The position numbers were made by a program, and so were the translations under genes. The notes beneath the pieces were generated by a model, which was not told where the DNA came from, did not search any database, and worked only from the letters and a program-made list of their open reading frames with translations. Below, one piece after another: positions 283-16,213 of a stretch of 64,000 bases of DNA. How positions within the stretch are numbered: position 1 is the stretch's first letter; every line of letters starts with the position of its first letter. This stretch comes from an uncultured delta proteobacterium (GTDB lineage Bacteria; Desulfobacterota; Desulfomonilia; UBA1062). The stretch covers positions 257,308 to 321,307 of the forward strand of contig CAWAUM010000002.1 of NCBI GenBank assembly GCA_963785235.1, written 5' to 3'.

Positions 283-2007
283 GTGGCTGGGATTTCTTTG
301 TATGTAAAGGCAAAATGGACTGCCAAGGATTCTTCTGAGAGCCTGCTTTATAGCATAATCATTTGCCTGGTACTTATCGTGGCCATTTGCATTGTTTATG
401 GACAGGTTCTTGGTTTCGGGTTCATCAATCTCGATGATCCAGGATATGTTAGTGGAAATGATATTGTCAAACAGGGAATAACTACCGACGGAATCAGGTG
501 GGCATATTCAACCTTTCACAAGGCAAACTGGCACCCAGTGACCTGGATCTCGCATATGCTCGATGTTCAATTTTTCGGAATGAACCCGGGCATGCATCAC
601 CTGACCAATGTGATCTTCCACATTCTCAATGCTCTCTTGCTGTTTTTTGTTTTGAAGAGGATGACCGGGACATTGTGGAGGAGCGCTGCCGTTGCTGGCC
701 TTTTTGCCCTGCACCCTTTGCATGTAGAGTCGGTTGTTTGGATCTCTGAACGCAAGGATGTGCTGAGCACTTTTTTCTGGCTGCTCACCATGGCGGGCTA
801 CCTATGGTATGTGCAGCAATGCACTGTTCGCAGATATCTTGTTGTAGTTCTGTTCTTTGTCCTAGGGCTTTTGTCGAAACCCATGCTGGTGACGTTGCCT
901 TTTGTATTAGTGCTTTTGGATTTCTGGCCCTTGAAGCGCTGGGAACCCTATATACAAGGAAACATCGGCAATGATCCTGGCAAAAGGACATTGAGGTCCA
1001 GGTATAAACAACAAGTATTACCAATCTTTATCGCCGAGAAGATACCACTCATTGTACTTTCAACGGTATCAAGCATCGTTACTTTTTATGCACAGAAAAG
1101 TGGTGGTGCGGTGGGTTCTGTTGATAGCTTCGCCATAGGAACAAGACTGGCCAACGCTATTACATCCTATGCGGCTTATCTAGATAAGATGGTTAGGCCA
1201 TACAATCTAGCCGTTTTCTACCCATACACGGATACCTTCAGTTTCATCACAGTGTCGCTGTCTGCCTTGCTTCTCATTCTCATAACGACTGCTGTCATCC
1301 TTGCAGTAAAAGAGAAGCCGTATCTTTTTGTTGGATGGTTCTGGTATCTCGGAACTCTCTTTCCGGTCATCGGAATTGTGCAGGTTGGATCCCAGTCCAT
1401 GGCGGACAGGTACACATATATTCCGCTTATTGGAGTATTTGTGATGATTGTATGGGGCATTGTTGATTTCCTCAGTCGGCAGCGATATGGGAAGACCGTT
1501 CTTAGAACGGTTATTCTTGTTTTTCCACTATTCATATGGGTTTCCTGGGTCCAGGTTGGTTTGTGGAAGAACAGTGAAACCCTATTCATGCATGCGCTTG
1601 ATGTAACGAGAAACAATTATCTAATACACTACAACTTAGGAATTACCCTCTACGAACAAGGGAATGTCGATGGTGCTATGAGAGAATACCAAGCGTCCTT
1701 GCAAATAAAACCTGATTTTACAGAAGCCCATAATAATCTTGGGACTATATTGTTGCTTAAGGGGTATCCTGATGAAACTATCAGGCATTATCGAGAATCA
1801 TTGAGGATAAATTCTCATCAAACAGATACATATAATAATCTTGGTGCCGCCTATTTTCGAAAAGGGAATATCCCAATAGCAATAGAATGCTTTCAGGCGG
1901 CTATTCGCGAAAAATCGGATAATGCTAGTGCGATAAAGAATCTCGAGATTGCTAGAACAGCCCAGAAAAAGCCTGTGGGTTTGAATCAAAGGATCAAAGA
2001 TAAATAA
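283..2007 (+). CDS. TMTC-like membrane glycosyltransferase (GT-C) with C-terminal TPR repeats
   Basis: Motifs NLDDPGYV, NWHPVTWISHMLD, HPLHVESVVWISERKD, SKPMLVTLP and ADRYTYIP; multiple TM helices; TPRs (AHNNLG, TYNNLG). Confidence 0.85.
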   Translation: MAGISLYVKAKWTAKDSSESLLYSIIICLVLIVAICIVYGQVLGFGFINLDDPGYVSGNDIVKQGITTDGIRWAYSTFHKANWHPVTWISHMLDVQFFGMNPGMHHLTNVIFHILNALLLFFVLKRMTGTLWRSAAVAGLFALHPLHVESVVWISERKDVLSTFFWLLTMAGYLWYVQQCTVRRYLVVVLFFVLGLLSKPMLVTLPFVLVLLDFWPLKRWEPYIQGNIGNDPGKRTLRSRYKQQVLPIFIAEKIPLIVLSTVSSIVTFYAQKSGGAVGSVDSFAIGTRLANAITSYAAYLDKMVRPYNLAVFYPYTDTFSFITVSLSALLLILITTAVILAVKEKPYLFVGWFWYLGTLFPVIGIVQVGSQSMADRYTYIPLIGVFVMIVWGIVDFLSRQRYGKTVLRTVILVFPLFIWVSWVQVGLWKNSETLFMHALDVTRNNYLIHYNLGITLYEQGNVDGAMREYQASLQIKPDFTEAHNNLGTILLLKGYPDETIRHYRESLRINSHQTDTYNNLGAAYFRKGNIPIAIECFQAAIREKSDNASAIKNLEIARTAQKKPVGLNQRIKDK

Positions 2008-2066
2008 AGATCAATTGTCCTTTCTATCCGTTGATGTTGATTTGACAAAAAAGGTGTGCAGTAACG

Positions 2067-2108
2067 TGCCCCCGGCAGGAATCGGACCTGCGACACCAGG
2101 ATTAGGAA
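2067..2108 (-). repeat. att site: exact 42-bp duplicate of the 3' portion of tRNA-Arg(CCT)
   Basis: TGCCCCCGGCAGGAATCGGACCTGCGACACCAGGATTAGGAA is identical to 10322-10363. Confidence 0.95.
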
Positions 2109-2212
2109 AACTTCACATCATCCACAAAATCAGCTAACCTATCGAATTTCCTTTGTTGTTGCTTTAGCCTGTTGGCTTAAAATCGGCCTAAAGAGTCTAG
2201 TTTTTCAACAAT

Positions 2213-2235
2213 TCACCCATAACAGTCACCCATAA
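2213..2235 (+). repeat. Tandem TCACCCATAA repeats, candidate integrase arm-type sites
   Basis: Copies at 2213-2222 and 2226-2235 (13-bp period); a related pair lies at 10263-10272 and 10276-10285. Confidence 0.55.
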
Positions 2236-2246
2236 GGAGGAGAACC

Positions 2247-3020
2247 ATGTCGTATAAAAACACTCTTCAAAAAGTGGACACAGAAAAGGCTTTATCGCTT
2301 ATCGGAATTGAGTATCAGACCCAGGGAGCTTATGTCAAGTTCCCCTGTCCCAACTGCAAGGAACAAGCTGTTATCAAAGCATATGGAGACAAGAAGAATC
2401 TGTATTACTGCCCAAAATGCAAACTTAGCGGCCATATCATATCCCTTGTCATGAAGACTAAGGATATTGAATGGCAGGAAGCTGATCTACTCCTTTCCAA
2501 GACACAGGAAACAGCCAAGAAGATCACTCAAGAACTCACCATGAAATATGAGCTCCAGTATGACAAATATCTTGAAAACATCGGCTTAACTGAGAAATTC
2601 TGTAGAGACTACGAAATCGGTGTACCCAAAGGGAAGACGATGCTTGCTGGGTGCGTGGCGTTCACGGTCAAAGATGAAACTGGGTTAAAGGTGGCCTATT
2701 ACGGGATAAAGATGAAGGACAGGAAGCCAATGTTCCATAAGTCATTCAATCCTGAACTCTACCTGTACAACTTGTGCAATATCAATCCGGGTGAAATGAA
2801 AGAACCTGTCTACTTCACCACTGACATCTTAAAATGTGTCAGGATGATTCAAGAGGGCAAACAGTGTATCTCAAGCTTCGGCCTCCCATATCTCTCGAAT
2901 TATCATATCGAGCTTCTACAGAGTATCGAACACATAGTCTTCAAGGTTGATGCCGAGCTTATTAAGCCTATAGCTATTCAGCTTTCTGAAAGCCGTAAGG
3001 GATTCTATTATTTCGAATAA
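2247..3020 (+). CDS. Zinc-finger DNA primase-like protein (CHC2-type zinc finger plus degenerate Toprim-like region)
   Basis: CPNC...YYCPKC..SGHIISLV zinc finger and primase-like core (Y.IG...G..ML.G.VAF.V.D..G..VAY.G); AGGAG RBS. Confidence 0.65.
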   Translation: MSYKNTLQKVDTEKALSLIGIEYQTQGAYVKFPCPNCKEQAVIKAYGDKKNLYYCPKCKLSGHIISLVMKTKDIEWQEADLLLSKTQETAKKITQELTMKYELQYDKYLENIGLTEKFCRDYEIGVPKGKTMLAGCVAFTVKDETGLKVAYYGIKMKDRKPMFHKSFNPELYLYNLCNINPGEMKEPVYFTTDILKCVRMIQEGKQCISSFGLPYLSNYHIELLQSIEHIVFKVDAELIKPIAIQLSESRKGFYYFE

Positions 3021-3029
3021 CTCATAAGA

Positions 3030-3066
3030 AAAAGGGAGAGTATCACAATGTGATTCTCTCCCTTTT
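3030..3066 (+). terminator. Intrinsic terminator-like hairpin
   Basis: AAAAGGGAGAG-TATCACAATGTGAT-TCTCTCCCTTTT inverted repeat just after the primase-like gene. Confidence 0.65.
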
Positions 3067-3361
3067 AAATTTGATCTGAAATTTGTGGAGTCTTATATGT
3101 TGCATATTCCACGTGGAACAATGTTAAGACTACCAGTTAATATCCCAATTATTATAGGATATCTTTGTACAAACCCTTCAGTTAGGCAAATGTTGGTTAT
3201 AGAACATAATCTCTGGTTGAGTGTGTGAACATAGAACAGATGATTTTTATTGCATTATCATCACATTAGCCTATATGAATAGTTCTCCTAAAAATCAATG
3301 GTTGAGATCTAGTGTTCCGCCTTGATTTTACAAGTCTAGATTTTGATGGTAGTGCTTACAT

Positions 3362-3395
3362 AAAAAAGGCAGGGTTTTAAAATAGCCCCTGCCTT
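3362..3395 (-). terminator. Terminator downstream of the peroxiredoxin gene
   Basis: AAGGCAGGG...CCCTGCCTT stem followed by a T-run on the minus strand. Confidence 0.6.
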
Positions 3396-3420
3396 CATTC
3401 GGGTCGATTATAAATTAGTA

Positions 3421-4140
3421 TCAGTCAAATGCCATGGAAGTCTTCCAGACTTCCCAAACCTTCCCGACAAGATCCGGTCCAGGTTTGAGTGTTAATTTAC
3501 CTGGTCTCCATCCTGATGGTGTTGCTTCGGTCCCTTTGCTGTTTCTTACAAGCTGAAATGCCTGGATCTGCCTTAGTGTCTCATTTACATTTCTTCCCAC
3601 CGGTGGGGTAAGTACTTCATAACCCTGTATCACACCATCGGGATCGATAAGGAACCGCCCACGCATCTCTACCCCAGCATCAGGATCGTAGACATTATAG
3701 ACACTGCCCACTCTCCCACCTGAATCGGATAGCATGGCAAAAGGGACACCATCCTTAACCATTTTAGAAAGCTCATGATCATTCCACATCTTGTGGACGA
3801 AGACGCTGTCAATGCTCATGGAAAAGACCTCGACACCAAGCTTCTGGAACTCACCGTATTTCTCGGCAACTGCCGAGATCTCAGTTGCTCAGACAAAGGT
3901 GAAATCACCCGGGTAGAAACAGAGCACCACCCACTTGCCGAGGGACTCCGAGAGCTTGATCTGTACGAACTTGCCCTTGAGATACGCCGGGGCAGTGAAG
4001 TCCGGGGCCTTACCTCCAACCTTAATCATGATCTTGGTCTCCTTTCTGATACCCTCCTCCAGGGGAGGTGCTGTCTTGGGTTCCTCTCCCACAGGTCCAC
4101 CTGTAGGCCTTGCACATCCTGCCTTGATTTCTTCAGGCAT
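3421..4140 (-). CDS. prxU: Selenocysteine-containing AhpC/Prx1-type peroxiredoxin (PrxU)
   Basis: ORFs 3889-4191 and 3421-3819 are in one frame, separated only by TGA at 3889-3891 in the peroxidatic position (FYPGDFTFV-U-ATE). AGGAG RBS precedes the ATG at 4140. Confidence 0.9.
3861..3878 (-). promoter_or_regulatory. Bacterial SECIS hairpin
   Basis: mRNA reads UGA-GCAACUGAGA-UCUCGGC-AGUU-GCCGAGA: a 7-bp stem with the loop 17 nt after UGA and GU in the loop. Confidence 0.75.
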
Positions 4141-4277
4141 AACTAAACTCCTTTCATTTATTAACAGTCGTTCATCATTCCCTCTAAACAATAGCGCGAT
4201 TGATCTAATTAATAAAATTATCAGTATTATATGACCGTTTTTTCGCCGCCTGTCAGAAGACCTTAAATATGTTTATG

Positions 4278-6485
<2,208 letters not shown>

Positions 6486-6614
6486 CTACTATGAATAATA
6501 GCGTTTCGCTGCCCATATAACTTACATGGATTTGCCCGCCTGCATTCATTTGGCAGGCTAGAAATTCCCTCATCAGTCTTTGGCTTCCCTGCCATTGATT
6601 CCGAATCCTCATTT

Positions 6615-7079
6615 TCACAATTCCTTCTTCTGACACTTGGGACATAGACCGAAAAAGTCGAGGCGATGGGAGAAGATCTTGTACCCTGTTTTAACGCTCA
6701 TCTCCTCGCTGATTTCTCCCAGGTGGACAAGCTTAGGGTCCATGATCTTTTTACATCTCGTGCAGATAACATGGGGATGGGGATAGGGCTTGGTGCCATC
6801 ATAGCGATTGCTCCCGTCTGGAAACCCAAGCTCCAAGACCTCATTTAGGTCCTTGAGCAGCGATACAGTCTTATATACCGTAGCCAGACTTGTAGTAGGA
6901 AACTGAGTCCTCACCTTCTTGTAGATCTCTTCTACATTGGGATGTTCTTCGCTACCGGCCAGAATAGTAAGCACAGCGATTCTCTGCGGTGTTATACGGA
7001 AATCATGGCCCTTAATTTTTGAGAGCATCTGGTCTATTCTATCCTTAGGCGATGATATTTTCCCTTGACGATTCATCAT
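6615..7079 (-). CDS. perR: Fur-family peroxide-responsive regulator (PerR-like)
   Basis: RITPQR, HPNVEEIY, SLATVYKT, HPHVICTRC and C-terminal CPKC; directly upstream of katG. Confidence 0.85.
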   Translation of the reverse strand: MMNRQGKISSPKDRIDQMLSKIKGHDFRITPQRIAVLTILAGSEEHPNVEEIYKKVRTQFPTTSLATVYKTVSLLKDLNEVLELGFPDGSNRYDGTKPYPHPHVICTRCKKIMDPKLVHLGEISEEMSVKTGYKIFSHRLDFFGLCPKCQKKEL

Positions 7080-7111
7080 GAAAGTCCGATCTAATGAGGG
7101 TGATTATTTAT

Positions 7112-7126
7112 TAAGAATAATTATTA
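7112..7126 (-). promoter_or_regulatory. Candidate PerR box (autoregulation)
   Basis: TAATAATTATTCTTA matches TTATAATnATTATAA at 11 of 14 positions, about 35 bp upstream of perR; the region is AT-rich, so a chance match is possible. Confidence 0.45.
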
Positions 7127-7282
7127 ATATAATGACCATATTGTGATTTTCAAGATGTCTCTCTCAGATAGTTGGCATCATTGCCCTTATTTGGTTTATA
7201 AATTCCTCGACAACCCTGCCCCTTAATTAGGTAGAATTGGTGAAGCTGGAAGACCAAACATCTAAGTTGTTTGTGGCTCTCT

Positions 7283-7720
7283 TTACTTTAATTGGTCTGC
7301 AATGGCATCATTTAAGGCTTTTTGTGCTTCAAGAAGCTTTTTGTACTTGGAAGTTATTTTAGCCATATTACCAGAAAGAATCGCTTTCAGGAGATCGCCT
7401 TCCAGTTCGGCCACATCGATTCTCCGGTAGTAGTCCATGGTTTCCTTGAGATGGGCCAGAACGATCTTTCCGGTTAGGATGGGATGGTTGTTCGTGACAT
7501 TGGCGTCTTTAAATCTCGTCCCGTGCTCCAGTTCCACCTCCAATCCCATGCGAAAATCTTCGAGAGGTATAGGCATACCCTCAGTATTGACAATAGCGAG
7601 AATTTTAGAGCTCTCTTCTATCGAAACAACCGCTTCAGTCCGTTTTGACCAATCGTCCATCTCAATCTCATCACAAACCCTAGCGACTTCTTTCGCTGTT
7701 ACGTAATCAGGCAATATCAT
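7283..7720 (-). CDS. DUF5661-like protein
   Basis: FRMGLEVELEHG...NVTNNHPILTGKIVLAHLKETMDYY motif. Confidence 0.7.
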   Translation of the reverse strand: MILPDYVTAKEVARVCDEIEMDDWSKRTEAVVSIEESSKILAIVNTEGMPIPLEDFRMGLEVELEHGTRFKDANVTNNHPILTGKIVLAHLKETMDYYRRIDVAELEGDLLKAILSGNMAKITSKYKKLLEAQKALNDAIADQLK

Positions 7721-8473
7721 TTTTTTCTCCTTTCAAAAAAACCTGTGGTCCTGAAATATCTTTCTACGCAGATCTTTACTTAATTGTCTTGATAAGATAG
7801 TGCTTCTTAAAAGAGGATAATCGTTGGTCTTTCCTTAAGTCTGTCGTGTAGAACTTTTTGCGATAGCATCCTAAGAAACATATCATTCACCTCTGTCTTT
7901 TTAATAATGCACAATCCGCAACATTCAAGAGGTGTAGCCTGTTAGATTGATTATGATCCTGGTTGGCCCCAACCGATGATTTCATGCGAGATTGTTGAAA
8001 AACCTCGGCAAGTGTAAAAATAATCAAATTTGGAACATCAAAACACAAGTCTCGATCAAAATTCTCTCGATGTCGTGTGTTCTGTGAGGTCGTTTTTCTG
8101 CCACCAATCATCCATTTGGTTTTTCAACAAACTCTGCCATCAACATGCCCTGATGTGGAGCGCCGTTCAGCATAGGTCCTGACCCATCATCTCTTATCGG
8201 ACCTGAAATGTTTGGTGCCACCAAAAACTTGTATACCTGACCAATTGGTTTCATCAATGCAGGGTTTATTGTGTAATCGCAGAGGCAATAGGTATTGATT
8301 GGCAAACCCCGTATTTGCCATTCTGACATTTATAGCAGTGCCCCTGAGGGCATTTTGTCATTTTGTACCCGTTCATCTCCCGGCAGAAGGCCTTTCTGCC
8401 AAAGTGGCAGTATCGGGGGAAAACCTGTTGATTATTATTGCCTGTTATCAATGAGTTATAAATTATCAGAACC

Positions 8474-8488
8474 TGGCACGCCCCTTGC
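8474..8488 (+). promoter_or_regulatory. sigma54 (-24/-12) promoter
   Basis: TGGCACGCCCCTTGC matches the TGGCAC-N5-TTGC consensus exactly, about 50 bp before the ATG at 8537. Confidence 0.85.
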
Positions 8489-8536
8489 CTTATATAAGCT
8501 AGAAAGAAAAAAACAAACCCCAGGGAGGGCAAGACA

Positions 8537-8713
8537 ATGATGACATTATGGATCGTAATCGGCGCACTGTTCATGACCGGCATAGGGATCAGGTTCACCT
8601 ACAAGGTATTGGGACTCACCCCGGTAGAAGCAAGCGCGGTATTCGTCCTGGTGGTCGCCCTGGTAACCATCAACACCGGCCCGGCACGTGAGATCCTCAT
8701 GAGCCTGTTCTAA
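8537..8713 (+). CDS. 58-aa two-TM membrane protein (below the ORF-track cutoff)
   Basis: MMTLWIVIGALFMTGIGIRFTYKVLGLTPVEASAVFVLVVALVTINTGPAREILMSLF with a GGGAGG RBS. Confidence 0.7.
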   Translation: MMTLWIVIGALFMTGIGIRFTYKVLGLTPVEASAVFVLVVALVTINTGPAREILMSLF

Positions 8714-8754
8714 GGCAGGACTCGATAGAGATAAAAAGGATAAGGAGGAAGGCC

Positions 8755-8994
8755 ATGAAGACAAAGAAAGAAAAGATCGAAAAGGCACTGGCCAACAGGC
8801 TCAGCAGGATAAGCGCATACAGCCTGGTGCTCGTTACGATGACCTTCCTCGGACTCTACGGCGGCATGTATCTGGACAGGGTTCTCGGCATGGCACCCAA
8901 CTTCACGATGGTAGGACTGGTGGCCGGCATAGCACTGGGCTTCAAGGGGTTCATCGAAGAGGTCGTGATCGAGAGAAAGGTAAAGAGGGCTTAG
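8755..8994 (+). CDS. AtpZ/AtpI (ATPase_gene1)-family small membrane protein
   Basis: GLYGGMYLDRVLGMAPNFTMVGLVAGIALGF pattern; AGGAGG RBS. Confidence 0.75.
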   Translation: MKTKKEKIEKALANRLSRISAYSLVLVTMTFLGLYGGMYLDRVLGMAPNFTMVGLVAGIALGFKGFIEEVVIERKVKRA

Positions 8995-8996
8995 CC

Positions 8997-9101
8997 ATGA
9001 CAGTCATCTTTGTAACCATCGGCTTCACAACATTCCTGGCCCTGACTGCACGGTTCTTGAAACGAGCAGAGCATGCTCCCAGGACAGTGCACAACCGGTA
9101 A
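8997..9101 (+). CDS. 34-aa single-TM peptide
   Basis: MTVIFVTIGFTTFLALTARFLKRAEHAPRTVHNR starts 2 nt after the previous stop and ends before a terminator. Confidence 0.45.
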   Translation: MTVIFVTIGFTTFLALTARFLKRAEHAPRTVHNR

Positions 9102-9157
9102 TCAAACAGGACACGTCTACTTTACAGCGTATTTCCTCCCCAGGTAAAATCCATATA

Positions 9158-9192
9158 ACACACCGCGGCCCCTAAAGGGTCGTGTTTTTTAT
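9158..9192 (+). terminator. Terminator of the plus-strand mini-operon
   Basis: CGCGGCCC-CTAAA-GGGTCGTG hairpin followed by a T-run. Confidence 0.6.
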
Positions 9193-9210
9193 TCAACTGA
9201 TTATCCCGCT

Positions 9211-9248
9211 AAAAGCAACGGGCCGCCTGTAGTGGGCGGCCCGCTTTC
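9211..9248 (-). terminator. Terminator of the minus-strand mini-operon
   Basis: CGGGCCGCC-TGTAGTG-GGCGGCCCG stem flanked by A and T runs. Confidence 0.6.
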
Positions 9249-9295
9249 ATGATGCATCTTCTAGATGTTTTTTGATGGCTCTCTTGATGTATTGA

Positions 9296-9559
9296 CTAAG
9301 ACTGGAACCTTACTCTTCTTTTATTCAACTCATCCTTGGCCTTTGTGTAGTCCGTGTACATCCGTCCTATGCACAGAGAGAGTCCCAGCATGAACAGTCC
9401 AAGCATGAAGGTCGGTTCCGTGTTGAACTTTACATCGATCCACCGGCCTGCGAACATGAACAGGAATGAGGAGATAACCAGGGTGAAGCTCCATGCGCTC
9501 AGCAGTATGATCTGATTCAGCGTCTTTGTCTGGAGTTTGTTTCTTCGTACCCTTTTCAT
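9296..9559 (-). CDS. Second AtpZ/AtpI-family small membrane protein
   Basis: FMFAGRWIDVKFNTEPTFMLGLFMLGL pattern; AGGAG RBS. Confidence 0.75.
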   Translation of the reverse strand: MKRVRRNKLQTKTLNQIILLSAWSFTLVISSFLFMFAGRWIDVKFNTEPTFMLGLFMLGLSLCIGRMYTDYTKAKDELNKRRVRFQS

Positions 9560-9590
9560 GGCCTCTCCTCCTTTATAGGTTATGATCTTC

Positions 9591-9866
9591 TTAGCTGATC
9601 ATGCCTTTTACTGCTTCAAGGACCGGAGCAGTGAACAGGGCCACGAGCACGGCATACAGTGCGAAAGATCCGATTGCCTCACTCATGTATATCTTCTCAT
9701 AGCGATACTTCAAAGAGATGATGGTGAGCCCGCCCATGATCAGACAACCAAGGTGGAAGTACGGTAAGCTGTTGCCGCCGGAAACTGCTGTTGCTGCAAA
9801 AGCAAACGTGCCAGTGATCATTACCACGAACATTGCTACGATTATTGTCTGGATTGTCCTTTTCAT
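9591..9866 (-). CDS. Small membrane protein with signal peptide, resembling 8537-8713
   Basis: MKRTIQ...AFA signal peptide then two TM helices sharing an EA...F.L...LV...T.P..E pattern; GGAGG RBS. Confidence 0.7.
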   Translation of the reverse strand: MKRTIQTIIVAMFVVMITGTFAFAATAVSGGNSLPYFHLGCLIMGGLTIISLKYRYEKIYMSEAIGSFALYAVLVALFTAPVLEAVKGMIS

Positions 9867-9905
9867 TGTCTGACCTCCACTTTGTTTTTTTATACTATTT
9901 ATAAG

Positions 9906-9920
9906 GCATACATTGTGCCA
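9906..9920 (-). promoter_or_regulatory. sigma54 promoter
   Basis: TGGCACAATGTATGC on the minus strand, 40 bp before the ATG at 9866. Confidence 0.75.
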
Positions 9921-10321
9921 ACTCTGTGGCATGTGAGCATAATACCTTTCATCATATTGTTAATATTGATTATTAGATGAATTTCCATTCATCTGAGATC
10001 CGGTAGAAACATATAAAAACCATGATTCATTCGATGGAATGTTCAAAGGGATTGAATGAAACGTGTGAAATGCAGGACAACAAGTTGAATAAGAGTCCCT
10101 CGAGGGTCGACATTGATTAAGACCGTGAAAGTCCTCTAAAACGAAAATATCGCAAATCTCACTTCAAGGTTAAAACCCTTGTCTCAAGCTTTTAAAAAAT
10201 CAGTGAGCCTTAAAAAATCATCACTCCATAAAACCAAGCCAGAAGCTACTTTACAACGGAAGTACCTCATAGATTTCACCCATGTTGCATGTGTAAGACA
10301 CACTAAACCCTTTATAGATCA

Positions 10322-10394
10322 TGCCCCCGGCAGGAATCGGACCTGCGACACCAGGATTAGGAATCCTGTGCTCTATCCACTGAGCTACGGGGGC
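10322..10394 (-). tRNA. tRNA-Arg(CCT), CCA not encoded
   Basis: GCCCCCG acceptor stem, TAGCTCAGTGGATAGAGC D-arm, CAGGA-TTCCTAA-TCCTG anticodon arm and GCAGG-TCCGATT-CCTGC T-arm. Confidence 0.95.
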
Positions 10395-10527
10395 ATTGGG
10401 CCTTAATTAACTGCCCGGCCGGATCTAGTCAAGGAGAAAATGGGCATGAAATATAGGCCTTGGCAGGCCCTGGGCAGGTGTTTCGGTCTTGTGCGGCAAG
10501 CGCTGTTGCGCTATAGCCTTCTGTGCA

Positions 10528-11773
10528 ATGAAACGACCTGAAATCTTAGCACCGGCAGGCAGTATGGAGACCCTGCAGACCGCCTGCATCTACGGGGCCG
10601 ATGCCGTGTACATGGGCCTGCGTGGAGATACAAGCCTCAGGGCCTTTGCCAGGAACTTCTCGCCGGAGGAGCTTAGAGAGGCAGTGGCCTTTGCCCATGC
10701 AAAAGGGGTGAAGGTCTATCTGGCGCTGAACACGTATCCCCATGATCAGCAGTATGAGGGGCTCCCCGGCCTGGTCCGCTTTGCTGCTCAGGAGGCTCAT
10801 ATCGATGCAGTCATTGTATCAGACATTGGGGTATTGAGTCTGGTAAGACAGCTTTGTCCGAATCTTCATGTCCACCTGAGCACCCAGGCCAATGCCGTGA
10901 GCACCCATGCAGTAAATGCCTGGGCGGCCCTGGGGGTGAACAGGGTGATTCTTGCCCGGGAACTCTCGCGAGAAGAGATCAAGCTTATCAGGAAGAACTA
11001 CGGACATCGAACTTGAAATCTTCATTCATGGCAGTGTGTGTATATCCATCTCCGGCAGGTGCCTTATCAGCAATTACCTGTGCGACCGAGATGCAAATCA
11101 AGGCCAGTGCACCCAGCCATGCAGGTGGGACTATGCCCTTGTGGAAAAAACACGGCCCGGGCAGTATATGCCGCTGACCGAAGAAGATGGATTTACCTCC
11201 CTGTACAACTCGAAAGACCTCTGTCTTCTCCCGGTGTTCGACCAGGTCATGGGTCTTGGCCTTGATGGCATCAAGATCGAGGGCAGAAACAAGGCCCCGT
11301 TGTATGTAGCAACAATCGTTTCGGCCTACAGGAATGCCCGGGATGAGTATATGAGAGATCCTGCTGCATTTTCTGTAAAACCCGAGTGGATCAAGGAGGC
11401 AGGAATGGTAAGCAACCGGGCCTACTTCACCGGGTTCTTCACGGGCAGGCCGGACAGCACGGGCATCAATTATGGCTTTAAGGACTATGAGCAGACGCAT
11501 CACCTCGCAGCCAAGGTCCTTGGGGTTCAAGACGGCATGACGCTCATGGAGGCCCGCAATCCCCTGATTGCAGGAATGGAGCTTGAATGGCTTGCAGCAG
11601 ACGGCACGAGACAAAAATTTATTCTGGAGGGTGCCTTCAGTGAGGGTACCCCCATAGAGCGCATCAGGCCAAGCCAGCTCTTTACCTTAAAGACCCCTTT
11701 TATTCCGGGTCCGGGCGAACTTATTCGCAAGCCTTTCAGCAAGGGTGACAAGGTCATCCAGGGGAAGACTTGA
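10528..11773 (+). CDS. Peptidase U32-family protein (TrhP-like tRNA hydroxylase), frameshift near 11,000
   Basis: PEILAPAG, GADAVY, HLSTQAN and ILARELS, then in a second frame HGSVCISISGRC, QGQCTQPCRW and KIEGR. Confidence 0.85.
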
Positions 11774-13638
11774 TGCCGGCGAGACTCCTTGACGGCCTCA
11801 ACCCGGAGCAGTCACGCGCGGTGAGACATGTGGACGGGCCGCTTCTTATCTTCGCTGGCGCAGGCTCGGGCAAGACCAGGGTCATTGTCCACCGGGTGGC
11901 GCACCTCATTGCGCAGGGTGTGGATGCAAGCCGGATACTCTGCCTCACCTTTACCAACAAGGCAGCCGGCGAGATGAAGGAGCGGCTGAGGTCCCTGCTT
12001 GGAAAACATGATATTGCCCTGTGGGCAGGGACATTTCATTCTTTTGGGGCATGGATGCTTCGGCGCGAAGCGCACCGCATAGGGTATCCTGCAGCGTTCG
12101 TTATTTACGATGAGGCTGACCAGCGCTCGCTCATTGGCAGGTGTCTCAAGGAGTTGAACATTGACCGCGAGCGGGGATGGGATGCCCGCATTGCCTGGCT
12201 TATCGGCATGAGCAAGGATACGGTGCGGCCCATAGACCAGATTCCCTTTGACCTTCACCTTGACCCGGCCCCGGTGGTCAGCCTTTATGAACAGAAAAAA
12301 CAGGTCTGCGGCGCCTTTGACTTTGCAGATCTCATCTATCTCCCCGGGCAGATGCTCGCTGCCATGTCCGACCTTAGTGAGCACTATCACAAGAGGTTCA
12401 CCCATATCCTGGTGGATGAATACCAGGACACCAATATGGCCCAGTACAAGCTTCTCATGCAACTTGTGGGGCCGGGCAGAAACATCTGCGTGGTGGGTGA
12501 TGATGACCAGTCCATCTATGGGTGGAGGGGTGCTGATGTGGGGAATATCCTCAGGTTCAGGGACGACTTTCCCGACTCCCATGTCGTGACGCTGGAGCAG
12601 AACTACCGATCCACCGAAGACATCCTGAAGGCCGCCACATCGTTGATCGCCAACAATTCATGCCGGGCACCAAAGACATTACGCTCTGCTTGCGGGCCTG
12701 GAAGCGATGTAAGCATCATGGAATACAGCGATGATGGTGAGGAGGCGCTCCATACGGCCTATAACATCTCCCGCCTTGTTGATAAGGGCGTAAGCCCATC
12801 TTCCATAGGGGTGTTCTACCGGATCAATGCCTTGTCAAGGGTGTTGGAAGAGGCCTTTGTGAGGCGGGCCATACCCTATGCAGTCTATGGGGGCACAAGA
12901 TTTTATGACCGCAGGGAGATAAAGGACCTGCTTGCATATTTGCGTGTCATCGCCAATCCTGCCGATGGAGAGGCCCTCGCAAGGATCATCAACACCCCGC
13001 CAAGGGGCATGGGGGAAAAGAGCCTGGAGACAGTACAGGGCCTTGCCAGGGCCGAGGGACTAACCTTCTATGATGCTCTGGAAAAGGCGGTCTCAGGCAG
13101 GGTGCTCAAGGGGGCCGCAGCCAAAGGGGCGGTTATCTTCCTTGCCATGATGGAGGAGTTCAAAAGGTTAAGTGCTGTCGCTGATGTAGCTGAGCTGCTC
13201 TCCCGGATCGTGGATCGGACAGCTTATAAAGATTACCTCGGCGGGGATATGGATGGGCAGGACAGGCTCCTGAACGTCCGGGAGCTCATCGCCAGCGTGG
13301 CAGGGATTACCGACTTGACGACCTATCTTCAGGAAAAGGCCCTGATGACAACCATGGACGTGGCCCGAGGTGAAACGGCCAGTGTCATGACCCTGCATAT
13401 GTCCAAGGGGCTCGAGTTTGATCATGTCTTCATAGTCGGGTGTGAAGAGGGCCTGCTGCCCCACTCCCGGTCGTATGATACCACGGAGAACATCGAAGAA
13501 GAGCGGCGGCTCCTGTATGTTGGCATTACAAGGGCGCGCAGACATGTCGTCCTGTCCTGGTCCCGGGTGAGGGCGCTCTATGGCAGGGAGACCTACCAGA
13601 TGCCCTCAGGGTTCCTCCGGGAGATCTCAAATCCCTAG
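11770..13638 (+). CDS. uvrD: UvrD/PcrA DNA helicase
   Basis: AGAGSGKT, TFTNKAA, VDEYQDTN, VGDDDQSIY, LEQNYRS, TLHMSKGLEF and EERRLLYVGITRA. Confidence 0.92.
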   Translation: MMPARLLDGLNPEQSRAVRHVDGPLLIFAGAGSGKTRVIVHRVAHLIAQGVDASRILCLTFTNKAAGEMKERLRSLLGKHDIALWAGTFHSFGAWMLRREAHRIGYPAAFVIYDEADQRSLIGRCLKELNIDRERGWDARIAWLIGMSKDTVRPIDQIPFDLHLDPAPVVSLYEQKKQVCGAFDFADLIYLPGQMLAAMSDLSEHYHKRFTHILVDEYQDTNMAQYKLLMQLVGPGRNICVVGDDDQSIYGWRGADVGNILRFRDDFPDSHVVTLEQNYRSTEDILKAATSLIANNSCRAPKTLRSACGPGSDVSIMEYSDDGEEALHTAYNISRLVDKGVSPSSIGVFYRINALSRVLEEAFVRRAIPYAVYGGTRFYDRREIKDLLAYLRVIANPADGEALARIINTPPRGMGEKSLETVQGLARAEGLTFYDALEKAVSGRVLKGAAAKGAVIFLAMMEEFKRLSAVADVAELLSRIVDRTAYKDYLGGDMDGQDRLLNVRELIASVAGITDLTTYLQEKALMTTMDVARGETASVMTLHMSKGLEFDHVFIVGCEEGLLPHSRSYDTTENIEEERRLLYVGITRARRHVVLSWSRVRALYGRETYQMPSGFLREISNP

Positions 13639-14198
13639 AATTTCACCTGCGGGACAGCAGTCTCCTGTTCAGGTATATCGAAATACTGTGCTTCCTTTAC
13701 ACCTGCCCATGAAGAAAAGAGTACACCTGGGAAGGTCTTTACATATGAATTGAGTTCCCGGACAATGTCGTTGTACCGCTTGCGCTCCACCGCTATGCGG
13801 TTTTCCGTCCCCTCGAGGGAATCCTGGAGCTTCATGAAATTCTCGTTGGACTTGAGTTCAGGGTAGCGCTCCTGGAGTAGCAGCAGCCTGGACAGAGCCT
13901 GCTCCAAACCACCTGCCGCCTTGGCCTTCGCTGCCACATCAGGGGCTGAGAAGTATGCCTTCCTGGCCTCAGCGATCCCTAAGAATATGGATTTTTCCTG
14001 GTTGGCAAAACCCTTGACGGTCTCCATGAGGTTCGGGATGAGATCAAACCGGCGCTTTAGCTGGTTTTCCACCTGCGCCCACTGGGCCGTCACCGCCTCG
14101 TTCATACGGCGGGCCTTGTTGAAGCCGGATATGCCCAATCCTGTAACGAGGATGATAATGACAACAATCCCGATGATTACCTGAGTCGTTTTGCTCAT
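13635..14198 (-). CDS. lemA: LemA family protein
   Basis: QLKRRFDLIPNL, ERYPELKSN and LEGTENRIAVERKRYN. Confidence 0.93.
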   Translation of the reverse strand: MSKTTQVIIGIVVIIILVTGLGISGFNKARRMNEAVTAQWAQVENQLKRRFDLIPNLMETVKGFANQEKSIFLGIAEARKAYFSAPDVAAKAKAAGGLEQALSRLLLLQERYPELKSNENFMKLQDSLEGTENRIAVERKRYNDIVRELNSYVKTFPGVLFSSWAGVKEAQYFDIPEQETAVPQVKF

Positions 14199-14293
14199 AC
14201 AACCTCCTGTCTATCTGCGAGCATGAATGCGTATATATAGAAACGCCCTCTAAAGGGTAGCAGCCTCATAAAGTTTGGCTTCTTGATGCAGCT

Positions 14294-15076
14294 TCACCAT
14301 CCGCCGGACGAGCCCCCTCCTCCGAATCCACCACCTCCACCACCGCCGAAGGAGCCGAATCCTCCCCCGCCAAAGCTGCCGAAACCGCCCGAACTCCCAC
14401 GTCCGCCTCCTCCAAGGAGAGCACCTAGGAGAAGTGCCGGCAGGATACCCCCGGACCGGGAGCGGGAAAGGGAAGAGAGAACGATTACGAATATGATAAA
14501 AAAGAGTAAGGCTCCTATGGGAGAACCATGGGCGCGTCTGCCTGGTTGCTTCACTTCCGGTAATCCGCTGAGCTTTATGCCCTGGGCATCGGCAATGGTG
14601 CGCGCGATGACAGAGGTGGTGTTCATTGTTCCCTTGGTATAATCGCCTGCCTTGAATGCCGGGACAAGGTATGCTCTGCCGATGCTCCCCAGCATACTGT
14701 CGGGTAGAATTTGCTCCAGTCCATACCCGGTTTCAAACCGGTATTTCCTATCCTTGACTGCGATAAGCATGAGCAGGCCGTTGTCCTTGCCCTTCTTTCC
14801 CAGCCCCCATTTCTCCGCCTGCTCAAGGCTGTACTGCTCAATGGGAATGCCTTCGGTACTTGGTACGGTAAGGATGATCATCTGAACGGTCGTCTTCTGC
14901 TCCAACTCCTGCAGTAATCCGGCCAGCTTGCTCCTGGCCCCGTCTTCTATGATGCCGGCATTGTCTACTACATAGGTGGCAGGTTGGCCCTGTGCCGCGA
15001 AGACACCCAGGGGAAAGAGAATGCATGCAAGAAGAAACTTAAACTGCCAGTGCATCTGTGGCCGCACAAAGTTCAT
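14294..15076 (-). CDS. TPM-domain (YgcG-like) protein with Gly-rich tail
   Basis: VVDNAGII, WGLGKKGKDNGLL, ETGYGLE and GGGFGGGGSSGGW end; start uncertain. Confidence 0.88.
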   Translation of the reverse strand: MNFVRPQMHWQFKFLLACILFPLGVFAAQGQPATYVVDNAGIIEDGARSKLAGLLQELEQKTTVQMIILTVPSTEGIPIEQYSLEQAEKWGLGKKGKDNGLLMLIAVKDRKYRFETGYGLEQILPDSMLGSIGRAYLVPAFKAGDYTKGTMNTTSVIARTIADAQGIKLSGLPEVKQPGRRAHGSPIGALLFFIIFVIVLSSLSRSRSGGILPALLLGALLGGGGRGSSGGFGSFGGGGFGSFGGGGGGGFGGGGSSGGW

Positions 15077-15791
15077 GGGTAATCCTGTAGGCCTCTTTGA
15101 AAAGGCCAATTATAGTATTCCGATTAAGGAAAAAACTCCTGTCAGCCTTCAATGCAATGATATCTCGAAGTCCGGCCATAGGAATATGATAGAGGGCCTC
15201 TGCCTCGATCAACACATCCGCCTTTCGAGCAGGAGGCTCCTCTGGGGCCTGGACAAGGAACAGCATGGACCTCAGCAGTGCGAAGAATCCGGGCAGGGCC
15301 TCCAGGAGCAGCGCCTTGATCTCTCTGGTCCTGCCTTCACAGGAGACATAACCGCGCTGCAGGTTGATGAGCTTGCCCTTGAGGTCGCGCTCGCACTGCA
15401 TCCTTAGATGTGCCTTGTCGATGGCAAGCTTGCCGAAATGGTCGGGGCCATAAACCGTCTTGTGAAAGAGTTTGATGTCCAGGAACTCTATGGGGAAGAC
15501 ATCCAGAGAGCGCTTTATGTAATCCTCGGTCATAACGAGAGGGCTATTGATGCGCCTTCTTTTGAACCTTGACATGGAGGCAAGGATATCAAGTTCGGGC
15601 TGATCCGTCTGGGTAAGCACGAGCACGGAATTGATATCAGACTGACCGGGGACGAAGTCGCCTGTAATGCAACTCCCGGTTACACACAGCGACAGGAGTC
15701 TTAAGGAAAATTTTGCCAGCAGCTCCTGGGCAAAGGGCTGGAAGACCACTGCAGCCTCACCAGGGATGCCTTTCAGTTCGAAATCGGCCAT
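15039..15791 (-). CDS. Nucleotidyltransferase-fold protein of the lemA/TPM cluster
   Basis: GS...GDFVPGQSDINS and SLDVFPIEFLDIK motifs. Confidence 0.65.
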   Translation of the reverse strand: MADFELKGIPGEAAVVFQPFAQELLAKFSLRLLSLCVTGSCITGDFVPGQSDINSVLVLTQTDQPELDILASMSRFKRRRINSPLVMTEDYIKRSLDVFPIEFLDIKLFHKTVYGPDHFGKLAIDKAHLRMQCERDLKGKLINLQRGYVSCEGRTREIKALLLEALPGFFALLRSMLFLVQAPEEPPARKADVLIEAEALYHIPMAGLRDIIALKADRSFFLNRNTIIGLFKEAYRITHELCAATDALAV

Positions 15792-16213
15792 GGATAACTC
15801 CTTTGGGATGTGTTGTATCACACGGATGTATTCCATCCAAGCCTGAAGTCTAAAGCATGGGGAAGGGCTCCCTGGCGGCTTATGAATAAAGCTGTAAGCA
15901 CGGCAGAAGGATTTTTTAATAAAAAAAATAGCCAGAAGAAGTTTAGGTTTAAGGACAAAGCACGAGATGTTTTGTCCCCTCTTCTGGCGTAAAGGAGGTC
16001 AGAACAACACTTGTTGTAATTGCATTCATGACACTTAATGCATGCCCGGTCAACAAAAAAATGATTCATTGATCAAACATATGATATTTTGTATGCTGTA
16101 TAATATGTCTTACAATCAGACATCGTAGAGTGGTCCTTGGAGACGAGCGATAATAGGGACTATACTCTGTTTGTGCAGCTATTGAAAGATACACTCAATT
16201 GCGACATCCGAGC

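Follow-up and report, generated by a model that had tools for sequence, protein, structure and literature searches.

The small membrane proteins AtpZ and AtpI, encoded at the head of F-type operons, and AtpQ and AtpR, encoded in N-ATPase operons, are poorly understood and, to our knowledge, have so far been met only as constitutive passengers of atp operons. Among the passages of Dibrova et al. (2010; PMC2881411) that deal with these genes, AtpR is proposed to act on c subunits, AtpI is cited as a c-ring helper, and atpQ-type genes are placed also outside the N-ATPase operons (atpDCQRBEFAG); sections of two further papers link AtpZ with Mg2+ uptake (PMC4453477, PMC3543383). Here, we describe two convergent operons, A and B, in a 64,000-nucleotide (nt) stretch of DNA, referred to as the window, from a genome of the class Desulfomonilia. 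In both, a protein of the AtpZ/AtpQ family PF09527 (ATPase_gene1), denoted Y, is encoded next to a member of a new family of small proteins, denoted X. As judged from their sequences, A and B are paralogues of each other that depend on sigma54 and an activator and encode inner-membrane proteins of very small size. A PF09527 protein is here combined with a partner of a new family in operons that stand alone and are controlled by a sensor.

The original prediction for this locus described two mirror-image sigma54 mini-operons, and every part of that architecture is present in the window (coordinates in Table 1), including the CTTATA downstream of both promoters. Operon A is transcribed from the plus strand and operon B from the minus strand, and their 3′ ends, each with a hairpin of its own, lie about 100 nt apart. 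The proposed two-gene composition, a small protein plus an AtpZ-like protein, is correct for operon B, in which the promoter is followed by B1 (X′) and B2 (Y′), whereas operon A continues beyond A1 (X) and A2 (Y) into a third gene, A3 (Z). This third gene, the occurrence of the units in many copies and the existence of variants that lack the AtpZ-like gene go beyond the original description. The proposed absence of ATP synthase genes from the neighborhood is borne out, with none among the open reading frames (ORFs) of at least 110 amino acids (aa) scanned from 283 to 15833 of the window. Two of the ORFs were thought to fall below annotation cut-offs; this does not hold for A1 everywhere, as 58-aa public gene calls named “hypothetical protein” are found among its homologues. 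The module had also been called undescribed, in keeping with which no published account was found in the open full-text literature, subscription journals being outside that coverage. New here are the X family and the findings that it is paired with orphan PF09527 genes, that it belongs to the regulon of the two-component system and spare c subunit described below, and that it has been detached and amplified in one genus; the second type, A, is new as well.

The relationship of the two small partner proteins is apparent at the level of profiles. A pairwise BLASTP comparison of A1 with B1 is not significant (expectation value E = 3), so that the shared motif on which homology had been proposed does not carry the claim, though alignment of profiles of 30 sequences each with hhalign places A1 residues 6–58 on B1 residues 37–90 with a probability of 82% (E = 1.1e-5), and a search with the B1 profile matches the A1 gene of another genome (E = 2e-4). 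By these comparisons, X and X′ are one homologous family. Residues G9, G15, I18, E31, A32, and P49 are invariant in the merged A1/B1 alignment, and even among the most diverse X members one Gly, the Glu, and the Pro are each more than 90% conserved. X is predicted to fold into a two-helix hairpin, in which the first helix is rich in Gly, the loop is basic, and the second helix carries the nearly invariant Glu and Pro. B1, the long form, would precede this two-helix core with a signal-peptide-like leader ending AFA-A, a topology read from the sequence; the 113-aa ORF over B1 is a longer upstream extension of the 91-aa protein.

In public gene calls, 223 close homologues of A1 and 358 of B1 are found, which are unnamed or “hypothetical” bar a few generic automatic labels and whose source names are Desulfomonilia, Deltaproteobacteria, or Desulfobacterota, with one Syntrophaceae. 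A1, B1, and A3 have zero Pfam or NCBIfam family matches above the cut-offs. When 1.84 billion cluster representatives were searched exhaustively with a profile, 47 matches to X were returned at E ≤0.001, all of them 30–148 aa long, and therefore no fused forms in that cluster library. A profile search of the PDB with X gave 0 matches, Pfam scans of 26 diverse X members gave nothing usable (the best recurrent match, Bax1-I, is seen in five of the 26, never with E better than 0.014), and a look-up of B1 in the ESM Atlas returned its own unnamed clusters alone. A family of 58- to 91-aa proteins without a Pfam model, filed as “hypothetical” in the databases, is thus added.

Both operon types are real genes under purifying selection, as judged from the pattern of substitutions among the copies in the genome under study. 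Differences by codon position among these paralogues amount to 118/72/250 for A1, 56/22/214 for B1, and 88/61/160 for B2, and their concentration at third positions supports coding status. The genes are also covered, at 85–99% likeness, by contigs of relatives from four metatranscriptome libraries of four studies: one 594-nt contig spans 8557–9110 (A1, A2, and A3), and one 633-nt contig spans 9240–9871 (B2 and B1). Cover is absent over 8300–8421, 9154–9214, and 9886–10100 in all four runs, which says nothing on transcript ends.

The assignment of A2 and B2 as AtpZ-like survives a profile search, with PF09527 scores of 40.9 bits for A2 and 35.3 bits for B2 at a Pfam gathering cut-off of 26.6. 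The two proteins are 25% identical (E = 3e-9). Across an alignment of 17 A2/B2-type sequences, G37, D41, P48, and F50 never vary and form a conserved G-x3-D ... P-x-F core; the positions of the two-helix hairpin of Y were inferred from hydrophobicity. The genome contains 15 PF09527 genes: seven A2-type, five B2-type, and three others. Twelve of the 15 thus sit in A or B units that have their own promoter and terminator. Two are in ATPase operons, namely the atpZ of an atpZ-atpI-atpB-atpE operon on contig C1 and the atpQ of an N-ATPase operon on contig C7 (contigs of this genome are denoted C, genomes of relatives G, and loci L), and the last lies at 569 kb on C5, apart from ATPase genes. Y follows A1 directly in 18 of 21 A loci of relatives, and B2 follows B1 in 5/5 units of this genome and in 7/8 single-copy loci of other genera. 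In the variants without Y (L023, L024, and L030, from G100, G098, and G108), X is 59 aa long and ends in LLG, and Z follows directly; two of these three adjoin a gene for a ResIII/DEAD-type helicase. The N-terminal helix of A3, which ends in RF, is kept in all seven units of this genome and in about 16 of the 21 loci of relatives, the A3 start often overlaps the A2 stop, and the tail of A3 evolves freely, with differences of 19/19/20 by codon position.

The sigma54-type −24/−12 elements have the canonical spacing TGGCAC-N5-TTGC, exactly in A and with one mismatch in B. The bare pattern, with up to one mismatch, is found 7 times in the window where 5.4 matches are expected, and a count at least as high arises in 31 of 100 shuffles, which is no excess over chance; it is the conservation of the element, not this count, that makes sigma54 control more than a chance finding. 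The element is kept in 7/7 A and 5/5 B copies of this genome while the neighboring sequence diverges. In 20 of the 21 A loci of relatives, the A1 start is preceded at a distance of 50–63 nt by TGGCA[CT]-N5-NTGC, and the −24 half of the B promoter reads TGGCAC in all five copies of this genome and TGGCA[CT] in all eight loci of other genera. The proposal of a conserved sigma54-dependent module therefore stands, with the element at 12/12 units of this genome and at 20/21 foreign A loci.

Upstream of the A promoter, copies of a TGYCA-N3-TGRCA palindrome are observed at about −158 and −77, with a degenerate third copy that is also present in the relatives' loci L019, L022, and L026. The exact form TGCCA-N3-TGGCA occurs 13 times in the genome, compared with about 3.7 expected, and 6 of the 13 are upstream of A units; among sigma54-like sites of the genome, six have a TGYCA-N3-TGRCA palindrome upstream, and these are at A units only. 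The palindromes may be where an activator binds. An NtrC-type regulator beside the A unit at C2:37k was considered as this activator and rejected because its orthologs are not consistently near the units, being found close to A or B units in this genome, G104, and G106 only. Between the upstream elements and the promoter, a block ATCAAT.AGTTATAA is conserved in 7/7 A copies, and [AT]ATCA[AT]N4TT[AG], which we take to be the IHF consensus, is matched in 10/21 A loci of relatives. The upstream element of operon B differs from that of A and is common to the B units and the spare c-subunit operon described below. A further A-type palindrome, TGCCAGAATGGCA, is at C6:5923, on a short contig (6514 bases) whose end is about 590 nt away; an eighth A unit may have been truncated there, and these repeats may cause breaks in the assembly.

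Three lines of evidence, namely regulator locus, cis element, and phyletic distribution, place type B together with a Cache/PAS two-component system and the spare c-subunit operon of that system. Of the eight single-copy B loci of other genera, five have B1 directly behind the genes for a kinase (dCache_1-PAS-HisKA-HATPase, ∼870 aa) and an NtrC-type activator (REC-Sigma54_activat-HTH_8, ∼460 aa). Across the activator-bearing genomes outside the genus, B1 is 224–632 nt 3′ of the activator ortholog and on the same strand in 14/18, representing 7 genera. Within the genus the arrangement is found in 0/13 genomes (the gene is at a contig end in two of the 13), and in the genome under study a RelA/SpoT homologue, not a B unit, follows the activator. 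From this comparison, type B resides directly behind its activator in most genera, and in the genus under study it has moved away from there with promoter and upstream element intact and has multiplied, often coming to lie tail-to-tail with an A unit. In G116, two B1 genes with 1.4 kb between them share a strand and directly follow the activator (C112:63380–65052); the B unit seems to have been duplicated locally at its ancestral site.

The counterpart of this locus in the genome under study is a module on C2:183269–191814, in which a sigma54 element, TGGCATAGCTATTGCT, is followed by c2, Cache2, and a FadL-like gene, with the kinase and activator genes oriented divergently and the c2-Cache2 operon about 2.8 kb from the kinase gene. 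The first product, c2, is a 124-aa c subunit with a leader (PF00137, 62.6 bits), and Cache2 is an output-less Cache membrane protein of 428 aa (dCache_1, 54.2 bits). The activator gene is at C2:190435–191814; its product is 75–83% and the kinase 48–62% identical to the orthologs in relatives, and c2-Cache2 operons with a sigma54 element beside the two-component system are also present in G072, G090, and G087. The common cis element was recovered with a rank test in which the 21-nt site upstream of the G087 c2 gene was scored over positions −260 to −40 of 105 sigma54-like sites of the genome under study. The five B units score 18, 18, 18, 17, and 15 of 21 and the c2 operon scores 15, such that these six occupy ranks 1–6, and all others reach at most 14. 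An exact palindrome TTGAAC-N5-GTTCAA with up to 2 mismatches proved too strict, with 2 of the 105 sites matched and about 1.4 expected. In terms of phyletic pattern, 31 of the 52 genomes of the family have both B1 and Cache2, two have B1 only (G089 and G092), 0 have Cache2 only, and 19 have neither; for B1 and the activator the corresponding numbers are 31, two (G071 and G107), 0, and 19. Co-occurrence is patchy inside two genera (1/5 and 4/12), which implies several gains or losses.

A second orphan c subunit, c1, is encoded at C1:729292–731143 (L049). It has 122 aa with its leader (PF00137, 56.6 bits) and is followed by a Cache-type protein of 431 aa; this pair is present in 47/52 genomes of the family. 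No sigma54 element was seen upstream of c1, where a sigma70-like TTGCAT-N17-TATTAA is present.

The units are restricted in distribution and repeated in the genome. A survey of 122 genomes of the class, 52 in this family (the genome under study included) and 70 in a sister family, found the short form of X in 48 of 51 other genomes of the family and the long form in 33/52, this genome included; the 70 sister-family genomes gave one weak match for the short form (E = 6e-4). On these data, A and B units are confined to one family of Desulfomonilia. The genome under study has seven A and five B units, arranged as three convergent pairs, four single A units, and two single B units. The module in the window, 8135–10276, recurs with 90% identity (blastn) at C11:126706–128837, and most of it, 8314–10069, recurs with 87% identity at C5:538394–536651. 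Convergent A/B pairs occur in this genus only: three times in this genome and in G098, G105, G106, G107, and G109, with a divergent pair in G104. Comparison of the three full modules shows that A1 plus A2 are 99–100% identical in every pair while other segments range from 41% to 100%, a mosaic that points to recombination or gene conversion among the copies. A similar pattern is seen in five A copies (window, C11, C5, C1, and C2:37k), where A1 has 0–3 differences in 174 nt and A2 has 1–4 in 237 nt, while the upstream regions, A3, and the 3′ ends are just 41–92% identical; near-identical A1 and A2 amid divergent surroundings suggest gene conversion or selection on the RNA itself.

The reading of these data that we favor, at about an even chance of being right, draws on analogy with the helper proteins of ATP synthase operons: type B would encode an accessory pair for an alternative rotor switched by a signal, and type A would be a paralogous set with a related job under another activator. 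The extracellular Cache domain of the kinase suggests that the signal is a chemical ligand. On sensing such an extracellular ligand, the kinase would cause the activator to turn on c2-Cache2 and X′-Y′ together, and X′-Y′ would be a dedicated accessory or assembly pair that inserts c2 into the rotor ring. Such a role would parallel that of AtpZ-AtpI at the head of F-type operons and of AtpQ-AtpR in N-ATPase operons. Type A (X-Y-Z) would perform a related job under a second activator, one that recognizes TGCCA-N3-TGGCA. The original suggestion that the module tunes ATP synthase gains indirect support for B, through the regulator locus, the upstream element, and the phyletic pattern, and finds no such backing for A, which has no detectable tie to any c-subunit gene. 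If true, the proposal provides a handle on ATP synthase remodelling in syntrophic or energy-starved anaerobes and on the actual role of AtpZ-type proteins, and the system is testable because the kinase, the activator, the DNA element, and the four small genes are defined.

Several observations weigh against this reading. The function of X-Y(-Z) as rotor helpers is itself inferred. A units are never near either Cache/c-subunit operon, and type A, present in 48/51 genomes, is also found in genomes without c2 and has a different upstream element. X followed by Z without Y is seen in 3/21 foreign A loci, and one B1 is without B2; the existence of units without Y makes X, not the AtpZ-like Y, the constant part, and a Y that some units can dispense with weakens a reading centered on AtpZ. 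X is not related to the known partners of PF09527 proteins or to the rotor subunit by the comparisons made: a relationship with subunit c was rejected (hhalign probability 0.8%, no PF00137 match, and in tblastn a weak resemblance of the second helix only, E 0.07–0.13), as were those with AtpR (0.3%) and with AtpI/UncI (PF03899; 0.8% against the AtpI of this genome, no Pfam match). The promoters of foreign B loci have TTTC or TTCC in place of TTGC at −12 in 7/8 cases, which leaves the canonical GC in 1/8. The co-occurrence counts overstate independence, as the compared genomes are related to one another, and contigs in RNA libraries attest presence in those libraries and cannot prove transcription. 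Matches to X are also not enriched near atpB, with about 3 of about 190 within 7 kb by hand count against about 2 expected. General linkage to ATP synthase loci was accordingly rejected after this family-wide comparison with atpB positions; single cases exist, in that the unit on C1 is 1.7 kb after atpHAGDC and units of genus g4 are 1.3–1.6 kb from atpB. On C1, a pair composed of a TumE-type toxin and an HVO_A0114-type protein (PF20126 and PF25212; C1:580431–581164, L013 5132–5862) lies between atpC and the A unit.

Other functions for such proteins can be envisioned. X-Y(-Z) could be a small inducible cation channel or uptake aid for Mg2+ or Ca2+, independent of ATP synthase, as proposed for AtpZ/AtpI of Bacillus pseudofirmus. 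The membership of both Y proteins in PF09527, the invariant Asp of Y and nearly invariant Glu of X, the location of some copies near a P-type cation ATPase or a Na+/H+ exchanger, and the lack of a tie between type A and c-subunit genes are in line with this notion, as is the link between AtpZ and Mg2+ in the relevant sections of PMC4453477 and PMC3543383. We nevertheless consider a channel unlikely: type B co-occurs and has a common cis element with the spare c-subunit operon, the flanking genes are inconsistent both among the copies in this genome and among single-copy A loci of relatives, and units without Y exist. A bolder variant of the rotor scheme takes up the form of X itself. X has the predicted topology of subunit c, with both ends outside and a basic cytoplasmic loop, and also resembles it in that the first helix is rich in Gly and the second contains a conserved carboxylate. 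It might be a miniature mimic of subunit c, made on a chemical signal together with c2, that with Y enters, caps, or spaces the ring. These energy-limited anaerobes would then alter their ion-to-ATP ratio or lock the ATP synthase on demand, with the amplified A and B copies providing graded dosage under two different signals; we hold this to be a long shot.

Sigma54 regulons are also known to include generic membrane-stress peptides in the manner of PspG, PspB, and PspC, which would stabilize the membrane or the proton-motive force with no specific partner complex. Sigma54 control, very small hydrophobic products in high copy number, and contig cover from metatranscriptomes of four different studies would suit such a role for X-Y(-Z), which is nonetheless decidedly improbable to us given that none of the 26 X members scanned gives a usable match to Psp or any other family, that type B is tightly and specifically tied to one two-component system and c2, and that the sensor of the kinase is an extracellular Cache domain and not of a membrane-stress type. 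It is very hard to credit, finally, that the 2-kb module is a repeat of mobile or selfish nature, either a non-autonomous element or a toxin-antitoxin-like cassette, whose small ORFs do nothing for the host. The three modules of 87–90% identity and six single units in one genome, the mosaic identity among them, and the end of one module 45 nt from a tRNA-Arg gene are features of the kind expected of such a repeat. The copies in this genome, however, are not adjoined by a transposase or integrase, the module has no terminal inverted repeats (3 weak internal pairs were found), and single-copy units are at syntenic places across genera, under purifying selection and with promoters conserved across at least 7 genera.

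Table 1. Features of the convergent module in the window (1-based positions; strand as given)
Feature	Position	Strand	Basis
Repeated convergent module (operons A and B with control regions)	8135–10276	.	blastn against the same genome
Distal upstream element of operon A, TGCCATTCTGACA (TGYCA-N3-TGRCA palindrome)	8316–8328	+	Conserved in A copies of this genome
Middle upstream element of operon A, TGTCATTTTGTAC (degenerate palindrome copy)	8356–8368	+	Conserved block in alignment of 7 A upstream regions of this genome
Proximal upstream element of operon A, TGCCAAAGTGGCA	8397–8409	+	Conserved in A copies of this genome
IHF-like site, TATCAATGAGTTA, between upstream elements and A promoter	8446–8458	+	Conserved block; presumed IHF consensus
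Sigma54-type −24/−12 promoter of operon A, TGGCACGCCCCTTGC	8474–8488	+	Exact consensus match
A1 = X, 58 aa, two predicted membrane helices	8537–8713	+	No Pfam/NCBIfam family; conserved
A2 = Y, 79 aa, PF09527 (AtpZ/AtpQ-type hairpin)	8755–8994	+	Pfam profile
A3 = Z, 34 aa, one predicted membrane helix, basic tail	8997–9101	+	Conserved in units of this genome and of relatives
Intrinsic terminator of operon A, 8-pair stem then TTTTTTATTC	9164–9194	+	Terminator scan
Terminator-like GC-rich hairpin with T-rich tail, end of operon B	9209–9244	-	By eye; absent from terminator-scan list
B2 = Y′, 87 aa, PF09527	9296–9559	-	Pfam profile
B1 = X′, 91 aa from MKRTIQ start	9591–9866	-	Homologues and profile match to X
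Sigma54-type promoter of operon B, TGGCACAATGTATGC	9906–9920	-	One mismatch to consensus
Upstream element of operon B, ACGTTTCATTCAAT, then about 7 nt on TTGAACATTCCATCGAATGAA	10021–10068	-	Conserved in B units of this genome and foreign B units

The module is flanked on its right by a tRNA-Arg(CCT) gene on the minus strand (10321–10395), 45 nt past the module end at 10276; a 42-nt piece of this gene is found exactly at C2:259374–259415 and with 86% identity at C5:594506–594549. Beyond it, a peptidase U32 is split into overlapping ORFs (10489–11016 and 10952–11773), and on C11 the genes for GTP cyclohydrolase FolE2 and an AIR-synthase-like protein are likewise split (L011 10694–11468 and 11464–12457); these split ORFs could be assembly indel errors or true frameshifts. 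On the left, an oxidative-stress cluster (3421–7076) comprises, all on the minus strand, a catalase-peroxidase (4278–6443), a Fur/PerR-family regulator (6615–7076), and an apparently truncated AhpC/1-Cys peroxiredoxin (3421–3816) of which the C-terminal domain part alone is present.

The architecture of the units is reminiscent of three known systems. In AtpZ-AtpI (UncI; PF09527 plus PF03899), of which the atpZ-atpI-atpB-atpE operon of this genome is the classical form, a PF09527 two-helix protein is likewise encoded beside a second small polytopic membrane protein. X-Y units differ in that they are detached from the atp structural genes, with their own sigma54 promoter and terminator, in that X precedes Y and is unrelated to AtpI, and in that the units are multi-copy and in some cases without Y. 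AtpQ-AtpR of N-ATPase operons, one of which is carried on C7 with its atpQ, also pairs a PF09527 protein with a small membrane protein bearing a conserved intramembrane charged residue. That residue is a Glu in X as compared with two Arg in AtpR, the order is X then Y, and the operon contains no ATPase genes.

The ancestral setting of type B provides a further parallel. In the DctB/DctD-dctA style of regulation, an NtrC-family two-component system adjoins its sigma54-dependent target, and the B locus resembles it in that the kinase and activator genes immediately precede a sigma54 promoter that has binding sites upstream of it. The targets here are tiny membrane proteins and a rotor subunit instead of a transporter, and in the genome under study they are scattered in trans.

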